A stretch of 64,000 nt of DNA from Alphaproteobacteria bacterium (GTDB taxonomy: Bacteria; Pseudomonadota; Alphaproteobacteria; SP197): contig OZ219747.1 in assembly GCA_964291265.2 (NCBI GenBank), positions 1,472,001-1,536,000 of the forward strand, in the 5' to 3' direction. The position numbers were made by a program, and so were the translations under genes. The notes beneath the pieces were generated by a model. It made no database searches and had not been told where the DNA came from. It saw only the letters and a list, made by a program, of their open reading frames with translations. Shown here piece after piece: positions 1-8,280 of this stretch. How positions within the stretch are numbered: the stretch's first letter is position 1; each line of letters begins with the position of its first letter.

Positions 1-164
1 CGATGGAGGAAGAAGTGCGCATCATCCTGCGCGAGGCTGTCGAGCTCAGGGAGTCCCCGAGGAATCTCGCAAGCGTCCTTCGCGCCCGCATGGCACCTCT
101 CGGCGGCGTGGATCTTGAACTGCCGCCGCGCGGGCCGATGCGCGAACCGCCCACCTTCGATTGA
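1..164 (+). CDS. FitA/StbC-like ribbon-helix-helix antitoxin, 3' part (5' end outside window)
   Basis: Frame from nt 3 reads MEEEVRIILREAV...LGGVDLELPPRGPMREPPTFD*, typical of plasmid-stability antitoxins; sits directly upstream of a PIN toxin. Confidence 0.75.
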   Translation, partial: MEEEVRIILREAVELRESPRNLASVLRARMAPLGGVDLELPPRGPMREPPTFD

Positions 165-174
165 GCGTGGCGCG

Positions 175-596
175 ATGACCATCCTGCTGAACACGAATGT
201 GGTATCCGAACTGTTGCGCCGGTCTCCCGATCCGATCGTCGAGGCCTGGGTGGGAGACCGCTCTGCAACGGGCCTGTATTTCTCGGCGGTCGGCGAAGCG
301 GAACTCTGGTACGGCGTTGCGATCCTCCCGGCCGGCCGGCGTCAGGCGGCGCTTGCCTCTGTCATCGAGACGATCCTGCGGGAAGATTTCGAGGGCCGCA
401 TCCTTTCGACAGTGCGGCAGTGCGGGACTATGCGGACATCGCGGCGTGTCGGCGTTCCACCGGATGTCCGATCGGCCCGGCGGACTGCCAGATCGCCGCC
501 ATCGCCCGCTCGCACGGCATGGCGGCGGCGACCCGCAATGTCCGGGACTTCGATGATACCGGCATCGATGTCGTCGACCCCTGGACGGCGGCATGA
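175..596 (+). pseudogene. VapC/FitB-like PIN-domain toxin, frameshifted
   Basis: MTILLNTNVVSELLR...EAELWYGV...FEGRIL, then a frame change near 405 to FDSAAVRDYADI...DCQIAAIARSHG..ATRNVRDFDDTGIDVVDPW*. The first catalytic Asp of LDTNV is Asn. Confidence 0.85.
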
Positions 597-1290
597 GCGG
601 CACGACGGAAGCCTTCGGCGCGCGTGAAGATCGACAGGCTGCTTGAGAACGCCGGTTGGATCCTGACGGACGGTTCGAGCATCCTGTTCGAACATGCGCT
701 GCCCGACGGCACGCAGGCCGACTACGTGCTCTGCGACCGGCAGGGTCGGCCCATGGCAGCGCTGGAGGCGAAGCGTGCGAGTATCGATCCCATTGCGGCG
801 CAGGACCATGGTCGGCACTATGCCGGACAACTCGGCCTGCCTTTCGTGTTCCTCTCGAACGGCGAGGAAGTACGGTACCTCGACCGCGAGACCGACGCCC
901 ACGCGCGCAAGGTTGCCGGGCCGCGTGGACCTGCTCCTCGGAAGCGGTGTCACCGACGCCCACGCGCGCAAGGTTGCCGGCCTCTCGACACAACTCCGCG
1001 CCAAGGGGCGCGCCCGACGCCTACGCGCGCAAGGTGGCCGGCTTCAATGCCCGGGACGACCTCGAACGGCGCATTGCGGAGCTCCGGAGTCGCCGCGACC
1101 TGTCGGCGGTCGCCGTCGACCACAGGATCGTCGACCGGCCCTGCCAGATCGGATGCCTCGAGGCCTTGTCCGCCGAAGTCTCGCGCGGGCGGCGCTCAGC
1201 TGCTGGTCGAGATGACGATGGGCACCGGCAAGGCGCGCACGGCGGCGGCCTTCATCAAGCGGCTGTTCGAGGCGGGCATCGTCATCCGTG
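593..1290 (+). pseudogene. hsdR: Type I restriction endonuclease subunit R (EcoEI/EcoAI-like), N-terminal remnant
   Basis: KIDRLLENAGW, ADYVL..EAKR nuclease motif, FLSNGEE, then LVEMTMGTGKARTA (degenerate helicase motif I). Several frameshifts, a 122-bp repeat-spacer insertion, and truncation near 1290. Confidence 0.85.
891..1041. repeat. CRISPR-like mini array: three 29-bp direct repeats separated by two unique 32-bp spacers
   Basis: ACCGACGCCCACGCGCGCAAGGTTGCCGG at 891-919 and 952-980 (identical) and 1013-1041 (3 mismatches). Spacers 920-951 and 981-1012; period 61 bp. Confidence 0.9.
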
Positions 1291-1569
1291 TGGGGATGTT
1301 GAAAGGTCCGATGACCTGGACGATGCCGCCGTCAGTCTGCTCTCTGGCGATCGCCGGATTGACTGGACAGGGAGTCGAGGAAGGAGTCATGCTTGGTGAA
1401 GGAGGCAGTTCCGCCTCCCTGTCGGCACGGTGGCCGATGTGGGCGAGGGGAAGTCTCTTCGAGGGGCGACGTTCCTGTCGAACCGGAAACGATGACGCTC
1501 GAACCGGCGGTCGGGGCGTCTGAGCGGTGTCACCCGCTGACCGCGTCGGGAAAGGAGATGAAGCAGGCG

Positions 1570-6696: not shown

Positions 6697-8280
6697 ATGA
6701 CGTTACCAACCATGACACGCCGCGCCATGCTTCAGGCGACAGCCGGTTCCGCTGCCGCGGCTACTTTCGTTGACGGACTGCTCGATCCAGGTAGCGCTTG
6801 GGCCCAGTCGGGCAGACCACTCAGGCTGCGCTCCAACCGGACCATCCTGTCGACGGACCCCGGCTACATGATCGGTGGCTTCGAGATGGTCCTGCAGTAT
6901 GCCTGCCTTGCCCGTCTGGCCAAGTACACCAACAGCGGTGACACGTGGGACTGGGAGCCGAGCGAGTTCGTCGAATCCCTGGAACAGCCCGATGCGCAGA
7001 CGATCAGCTTCGAGTTGAAGAAGGGAATCATGTGGTACGACGGGAACAGTCACGAGGCGATCGGCGAACTCGATGCCGAGGACGTCAAGTACTCGCTGGA
7101 GCGCATGAAGGTGTCCGAGTGGAAGGACAAGGCGGTGGCTCTCGACCACGTCGAGGTCACCGGCAGCCATTCGGGAATCCTCCATCTCAACCAGCCCTTC
7201 GCGCCCATCTGGCTGACGTGGCTGTGCGACGGGACCGGCGCCATTCTTTCGAAGAAGGCTGTCGAAGCGGCCGGCGGCAAGTACGACGGCATGTTCAGCT
7301 TCTATTGCGGCTACTACCGAGTCTCGGAGTGGTTGCAGAAGCAGAGCTTCACGCTTGAGCCGAACCCGAAGTGGCCCGGCACGCCTCCGGCCATCACCGA
7401 TGTGAAGTTCGTCATCATCGATGACGAGAAGACCGCCGAGATTGCCTTTGAAGCGGGCGAGATCGACATCACCCACGTCGCTGTCGATGCCATCCCGCGT
7501 CTCATGGAATCGCCGCCCGAAGACGGCATCTTGAAGGCCTTCTCGGGCACGCAGTGGTACTGGATGGGGCTCAACACCGAGCACCCGAACCTCCAGGACA
7601 TCCGGGTGCGTCGCGCCATCCAGCACGCGGTCGACGTCGACACCATCCTGGAGGGCGCGTGGGCCAATGCGGGAACCCGGGCCTACGGTGTCGTGCCCCC
7701 GGGCCTCATTGGCCACCGCACCGAGGGCAAGTTCGCCAAGCCCGATCTCGATGCAGCCCGTGCGCTTGTCGCCGAGGCCGGCGCCGAGGGGACCAGGCTC
7801 ACCCTCAAGACCATCAACCTGCAGGACCGCATGGCAGCGGCCACCATCATTCAGGCCAATCTCGCGGATATCGGTCTCGAGGTCGATGTCATTCCGATGG
7901 ATGCCGGGCCCTTCTGGAACCTGGGTCTCGAGGTCGAAGGCGACGAGTGGAAGGATCTCGAACTGTGGATCATGGCCTACCTTGATGCTCCCGATCCCAG
8001 CCAGATGACCCAGTGGTACATCTCGGATCAGGTCGGCGTGTGGAACTGGGAGCGCTGGAGAGACGAGGAGTTCGACCAGCTGTTCCAGGACGGTCTCTCC
8101 GAAACGGACCCGGCGAAGCGCCATGACATGTACGTCCGCATGCAGGAGATCATGGAGGACACGGGCGGTTATGTGTGGCTCATGTTCCCACCCAACGGCG
8201 TCATGTACCGCAAGGGGCTGGAACCCGTCATCACACCCAACGGATACATCTGGCAGACCCAGCACTTCAGCTGGACCTGA
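6697..8280 (+). CDS. ABC transporter substrate-binding protein, family 5 (DppA/OppA-like), Tat signal
   Basis: TRRAMLQ twin-arginine signal; DVKYSLER, DIRVRRAIQHAVD, DPAKR motifs; GGAGG RBS. Confidence 0.9.
   Translation: MTLPTMTRRAMLQATAGSAAAATFVDGLLDPGSAWAQSGRPLRLRSNRTILSTDPGYMIGGFEMVLQYACLARLAKYTNSGDTWDWEPSEFVESLEQPDAQTISFELKKGIMWYDGNSHEAIGELDAEDVKYSLERMKVSEWKDKAVALDHVEVTGSHSGILHLNQPFAPIWLTWLCDGTGAILSKKAVEAAGGKYDGMFSFYCGYYRVSEWLQKQSFTLEPNPKWPGTPPAITDVKFVIIDDEKTAEIAFEAGEIDITHVAVDAIPRLMESPPEDGILKAFSGTQWYWMGLNTEHPNLQDIRVRRAIQHAVDVDTILEGAWANAGTRAYGVVPPGLIGHRTEGKFAKPDLDAARALVAEAGAEGTRLTLKTINLQDRMAAATIIQANLADIGLEVDVIPMDAGPFWNLGLEVEGDEWKDLELWIMAYLDAPDPSQMTQWYISDQVGVWNWERWRDEEFDQLFQDGLSETDPAKRHDMYVRMQEIMEDTGGYVWLMFPPNGVMYRKGLEPVITPNGYIWQTQHFSWT

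Follow-up and report, generated by a model that had tools for sequence, protein, structure and literature searches.

The decayed hsdR gene of an alphaproteobacterial genome (G000; two contigs, completeness 100, contamination 2.6) holds a two-spacer, CRISPR-like array that we read, with a probability of roughly 0.87, as the fossil of off-target integrations by a type I-E Cas1-Cas2 complex, two of them at this one site, the enzyme having apparently been lost from the genome since. In type I-E adaptation, the integrase attaches a 33-nt prespacer to both strands of its target at points separated by 28 bp, and repair of the resulting gaps duplicates the target. At a site outside a CRISPR locus, each such integration would add 61 bp and turn the target into a repeat-spacer-repeat unit. 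The hsdR site would probably have been picked because a CG-rich run at its centre bears a loose likeness to the hairpin core of a genuine repeat, at least one prespacer would have been taken from the cell's own chromosome, and frameshifting inserts of this kind would persist in dispensable DNA only.

Ectopic spacer integration with type I-E geometry and duplication of hsdR had been put forward in a first-pass annotation of the window (the whole stretch of 64,000 nucleotides that was analysed), and the core of this proposal is supported by five lines of evidence laid out below: orthologous sites are empty, one spacer stems from a distant gene of the genome itself, G000 carries two more scars of 28 + 33 bp, type I-E arrays of congeners follow the same 28 + 33 ruler, and like scars occur in one congener.

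Structure of the array and state of its host gene

The array lies on the forward strand within an hsdR pseudogene fragment (593..1292) that spans roughly the first 200 codons of a type I restriction subunit (Pfam HSDR_N, E 2.5e-5, slightly below the cut-off) and has homologues in congeners and in one other family of the class. Three repeats at a period of 61 were confirmed where they had first been placed; the unit, however, is better described as a 28-bp duplication plus a 33-bp insert, present two times, than as the 29-bp repeat and 32-bp spacer originally proposed. Its boundaries are set by two constraints, namely how far the duplication reaches and how far an insert matches its source. Base 952 is assigned to spacer 1 because the match to the source gene runs on through it, and the base preceding 953 and 1014 is not the same for repeats 2 and 3; together, these two observations yield the 28 + 33 unit. 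Accordingly, repeat 1 (892..919) copies 28 bp of hsdR coding DNA present once in orthologues (the target duplication) and is followed by spacer 1 (920..952, 33 bp), a fragment of gltD, by repeat 2 (953..980), which is identical to repeat 1 as first noted, by spacer 2 (981..1013, 33 bp), and by repeat 3 (1014..1041), which is 26/28 identical to the other two. The three mismatches initially counted for repeat 3 thus reduce to 2/28, as the one at the edge (1013) belongs to spacer 2, whose final base it is. The idea that the two acquisitions were successive draws solely on these two positions: with repeats 1 and 2 identical and repeat 3 differing, the pattern suggests that spacer 2 integrated first, and a later mutation in repeat 3 would fit it too.

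Alignment to the orthologues in the congeners G005, G022, and G037 revealed three further lesions in hsdR, that is, +1 frameshifts near 616 (upstream of the array) and near 1195 as well as a truncation near 1292, beyond which the hsdR of relatives extends. Because the gene has these three other lesions, we give the array no credit for its inactivation; the initial suggestion that the array helped to inactivate a restriction gene is not demonstrable and appears unsupported by the sequence.

The chance that the array is a decayed tandem triplication of a 61-bp hsdR piece, a possibility raised as a caveat (tandem duplication) from the start, is vanishingly small. In-register comparisons of the spacers with their flanks and with one another give 7-14 matches in 33 positions, and although 14/33 is reached in two of the five comparisons, the best match of the spacers within 600 nt of flank (18/33) lies at the null level (mean 18.1). 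The repeats are 26-28/28 identical yet the spacers are unrelated, and spacer 1 consists of gltD DNA, which refutes a triplication. The array also differs from a period-59 match, which has the pattern of a genuine tandem duplication with a filler that copies the downstream flank.

Further features were observed in the vicinity and elsewhere in the genome. A toxin-antitoxin-like gene pair (window 1-596), presumably vapBC by its resemblance, adjoins hsdR directly upstream and is 4 nt shorter than in relatives near 404; the one frame tested gave no Pfam match. A second decayed hsdR start is located at C2:1768712, and tracts of 8-bp tandem repeats with a common unit are found at C2:1468368-1468534 (about 4 kb upstream of the window) and 3260749-3260835.

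Empty sites and support for the assembly

In G005, G022, and G037, the hsdR orthologues have exactly 122 bp fewer at the array site, and the repeat is present as a single copy, as had been anticipated for intact orthologues when the array was first described (then for a 29-mer). The same holds for all three G000 loci at which scars were found (see below), with the target present once in unmodified homologues. Contigs of three public sequencing runs (X1-X3, one study) carry the empty hsdR site as well: one contig skips the 122 bases, and others pass from the sequence upstream of the site directly to that downstream of it with a single repeat in between. Spacer 2 and the repeat-spacer junctions are covered by no contig of these runs, and the array is without independent read support; the contig cover has a gap over 957-1010, which argues neither way.

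An assembly or consensus artefact would explain why no independent contig spans the array and why related contigs give the empty site only. Nevertheless, we consider it highly improbable: the bases by which spacer 1 departs from the gltD of G000 agree with congeners, a pattern not expected from a chimera of own reads, and the 28 + 33 geometry recurs at two other G000 loci and in a second genome.

Origin of the inserts

The search for spacer origins that had been recommended succeeded for spacer 1 and gave no source for spacer 2. Spacer 1 is 30/33 identical to a stretch of G000's own gltD (C2:1418852-1418884), the gene for the small subunit of glutamate synthase (TIGR01318, above the cut-off), 54 kb off. 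At a level of at least 30/33, about 4e-6 matches are expected by chance. Among the 23 genomes of the genus, G000 provides the best match, and the Gly-Ser-coding bases of the spacer are common to G000 alone and occur in none of the 22 congeners. Of the three positions at which spacer and present gltD disagree, two show the spacer in agreement with all ten closest congeners, and it is the present gltD that deviates there. Spacer 1 therefore looks like a fragment captured from the lineage's own past gltD rather than copied from the present gene, and its capture would date to the time after the G000 lineage had split from the sampled congeners. An attempt to assign unequal ages to the events was dropped, as the contrast of 0/28 with 3/33 is not significant (Fisher p 0.24).

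For spacer 2, the best other match in G000 is 24/33. No exact match was found in JGI metagenomes, no exact 26-mer match in IMG/VR, none in 32 genomes of the family at up to 3 mismatches, and none in phages, and the comparison with plasmids returned a single 30-nt match at chance level (E 0.7). Likewise, no source was found in G000 or in further searches for insert C at one of the sister scars described in the next section. Altogether, two of the four G000 inserts (spacer 1 and insert B) were traced to distant genes of the same genome and are thus unrelated to their flanks and derived from other DNA, with spacer 2 and insert C untraced.

Sister scars in G000

The entire genome (4.83 Mb) was scanned for isolated duplications of at least 24/28 identity at periods of 45-80, with 23 other periods not divisible by 3 serving as control (multiples of 3 carry protein repeats). 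Period 61 yielded four events at three loci versus two events in total over the 23 control periods (Poisson P about 1e-4 for three loci), so that the scan for other 61-bp-period insertions, as originally advised, uncovered two more 28 + 33 scars, both in transposon DNA and each with a single spacer. Site B (C2:2520300-2520388) has identical repeats (28/28) in the remnant of an IS4-family transposase (below the cut-off), and its insert is 33/33 identical to a creatininase-family gene 156 kb away (C2:2676663-2676695); the empty site is preserved in a G000 paralogue that aligns with an exact 61-nt gap. Site C (C2:3757023-3757111; repeats 27/28) lies in the remnant of an IS3-family transposase, with the empty site in G010, G003, and G007. 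Because both site C copies are 5 nt shorter than the corresponding site in these three congeners, the gene was probably frameshifted before the insertion took place. All four insertion events, that is, the two at hsdR and those at sites B and C, jointly fit 28 + 33.

All three loci are situated in decayed or mobile DNA, which may reflect a survivor bias in that frameshifting inserts would survive in such DNA only. That two of the four events fell on one ordinary-looking site may mean that the site is a hot spot or that integration favoured the first scar. A further-reaching but tentative reading, to which we assign a chance of about one in three, is that the second step created a nascent array: the first scar, although devoid of leader, IHF site, and hairpin, would have become a favoured target, and the scars would date a vanished immune system, possibly one with a PAM offset by two bases. 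If true, a cas-free genome would still record the time of type I-E adaptation through the earlier gltD allele kept in spacer 1.

The scan also returned one period-47 match, and two period-61 matches of 21/28 were noted at C1:6433 and C2:6644. Candidates for the hsdR site with different spacers elsewhere (seven matches in two scans) were rejected, as all of them turned out to be Pro-Thr-like low-complexity repeats with a period of 60 or 62.

Type I-E systems and scars in congeners

The type I-E locus that had been called for in the same genome does not exist in G000: no Cas1, Cas2e, or Cas7e was found in the genome, a tblastn search with eight type I-E proteins detected no cas remnant (best E 0.023), and there is no CRISPR array. 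For this reason, the enzyme is inferred. Pfam detected Cas1 in 9 of the 22 congeners (G005 being missed by Pfam), and type I-E Cas1 scored above the cut-off in two of the 22, G005 and G009, both of which have full operons. Their arrays combine a 28-nt repeat with a 33-nt spacer in 93/95 units of G009 and in 15/15 regular units of G005 (which additionally has three longer gaps), while repeats at a period of about 66 nt were seen in the four other Cas1 regions examined. The lengths of duplication and insert in all four G000 events thus equal the repeat and spacer lengths of these congener arrays. Stray repeats were observed next to an array on contig C3 of G005 (L036:5953-6047 and 7668-7809), comprising two leader-side copies with 75- and 80-nt gaps and, at a distance of 608 nt, a degenerate pair.

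In G009, of which 1.6 of ~3.8 Mb were scanned, three decayed period-61 scars of at least 22/28 identity contrast with five events over 23 control periods (P about 0.0015). They are located at L101:19777, L102:13445, and L127:11325, corresponding to about 156.8, 170.4, and 668.3 kb on contig C1 of G009; two of them lie within 90 kb of the cas locus, and none was found in the 817-1617 kb stretch. One insert matches G009's own chromosome at 31/33, one scar has an empty site in G015, and no relative was found for the remaining one. Further matches of the G009 scan occurred at periods 55, 62, and 64. No scar was detected in 0.4 of 4.8 Mb of G005, a low-power sample of a genome that has type I-E, or in 0.4 of 4.1 Mb of G011.

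These findings bear on a mechanism that would require no CRISPR enzyme at all, namely break repair with captured filler DNA after a staggered break or a template switch. It would sit well with a genome without cas genes, with self-derived inserts, and with the lack of a canonical PAM (see the next section). What it leaves unexplained is the 28 + 33 geometry in 4/4 G000 events and the period of 61 in the three G009 scars, both of which coincide with the ruler of the congener arrays; moreover, the periods neighbouring 61 are nearly empty. We regard break repair as quite unlikely and favour Cas1-Cas2 integration.

As to how a type I-E system may come and go in this genus, the cas operon of G005 rides in the variable cargo slot of an integrative element whose family is multi-copy, has two tandem tyrosine recombinases, and is represented in G000 by several copies with different cargo (C2:3665356-3680042 and others). 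The element represents a possible route for the gain and loss of cas genes but no proof of one. The specific scenario that G000 lost cas from the slot used in G005 was discarded: the flanks are collinear, but the element is multi-copy, and the G000 slot contains no cas remnant.

Protospacer motifs and choice of target

Repeats that end as those of the congeners do are listed with AAC/AAn PAMs in the supplement of PMC8482600, and C is the first base of 90/95 G009 spacers when these are read in the inferred crRNA sense. The AAG-like PAM for which the flanks were to be inspected was not seen at its usual place: whichever orientation is assumed, the canonical position of the two traceable G000 sources holds neither AAC nor AAG. 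In both of them, AAG does occur at -4 to -2, displaced outwards by two bases. The one traceable source of a G009 scar has neither a canonical PAM nor the shifted AAG, so that AAG at -4 to -2 was abandoned as a rule. A PAM at the canonical position is thereby absent in 3/3 traceable sources. Of the congener array spacers, from which the PAM of that system might have been read, 0/110 mapped to the DNA searched. In E. coli, slips of 1-2 nt from AAG are described as a minor class (PMC4027179).

The shifted motif is the starting point of another explanation, according to which a different integrase with the same ruler, be it a type I-E variant or a Cas1 relative on a plasmid, phage, or integrative element, recognized a PAM two bases further from the spacer. 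Both traceable G000 sources carry the motif instead of the AAC that would be expected for congener-type repeats, and the G005 cas operon occupies the cargo slot of an element family of which G000 likewise has several copies. In addition, G020 harbours a four-repeat type I-E-like array with a period of 61 (contig C2, L064:1508-1718) without a match to Cas7e or type I-E Cas1. On the other hand, the motif was noticed post hoc in two sources, slips of 1-2 nt form a described minor class in E. coli, the shifted AAG is missing from the G009 scar, and no PAM of this form appears among the terms searched in the table of PMC8482600. Overall, a different integrase seems unlikely, albeit less so than the other alternatives, and a type I-E Cas1-Cas2 remains our preferred reading.

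The resemblance of the target to type I-E repeats, described as loose from the outset, is confined to a central run of alternating C and G and is not specific to the register. The hsdR target agrees with the congener repeat at 11/28 positions overall (p about 0.2) and at 10/16 in the core (p about 0.01), and for the six targets together, similarity to the congener repeat's hairpin core exceeds the background (p about 8e-5 when combined). The summed score, however, is 54 at shift 0 and 54, 57, and 52 at shifts of -2, +2, and -4, and since a frame slid by 2 or 4 scores equally, the signal is that of the central CG run.

By the IHF consensus, no IHF-like site lies within 60 bp of the three G000 sites (best 3-4 mismatches, background level); congener leaders match this consensus with 2 mismatches and array flanks with 3-4. 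Neither strand of the hsdR repeat folds into a stable hairpin (z +1.65 and +0.87), as compared to z values of -4.5 and -2.8 for congener repeats. A Cas6e hairpin repeat, a leader with an IHF site, and cas genes in the genome, which characterize a functional type I-E array, are thus all absent. Judged from these features, the hsdR array should be inert as immunity and would not qualify as a working immune locus.

Comparison with known systems

Off-target integration has been reported for E. coli Cas1-Cas2 (10.1101/148544, PMC11788318) and, in vitro, for Cas1-Cas2 of P. furiosus (PMC6698737). According to 10.1101/148544, natural evidence was only circumstantial and concerned two other species, and it is called unclear whether such integration occurs in wild bacteria and seeds new arrays. 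We found no survey of natural scars in the literature searched; subscription papers and later work may hold one. The mechanism itself is known, and the hsdR array is a natural case of this laboratory phenomenon, a clean one in view of its empty sites, self-derived spacers, and two-spacer array. The locus supplies a pair for testing, consisting of Cas1-Cas2 from a congener and of defined targets that carry no, one, or two spacers, and it demonstrates that scanning at a fixed period can bring to light a CRISPR system since lost, along with its subtype, even if the genome has no cas genes.

With the canonical type I-E arrays of G009 and G005, the hsdR array has in common the 28-nt repeat, the 33-nt spacer, and the period of 61; it differs from them in that its repeat is coding DNA of 11/28 identity and in that it is without stable hairpin, leader, and cas operon. 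Integration by the P. furiosus enzyme is similar insofar as non-CRISPR sites that share some features of the repeat are used at the spacing of the repeat, but the system is a different one, with a 30-bp ruler, and was studied in vitro on plasmid DNA (PMC6698737).

The closest counterpart is provided by the neo-CRISPR loci of the E. coli type I-E system (Nivala, Shipman and Church 2018, Nat Microbiol 3:310, as presented in 10.1101/148544, PMC7054753, PMC11788318, PMC9456107, and PMC6698737). In contrast to these, the G000 array is natural and fixed in a wild genome instead of resulting from overexpression, it has two spacers at one site and no cas genes left, and it has no nearby IHF-like site, whereas PMC9456107 cites Nivala for IHF sites raising the number of such events. 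In the accounts given by these sources, the E. coli loci have in common with the hsdR array a spacer-sized insert accompanied by a repeat-sized duplication of a non-CRISPR site, the type I-E ruler with 33-nt inserts (PMC4027179), targets that are loosely repeat-like, and spacers derived from the host itself.
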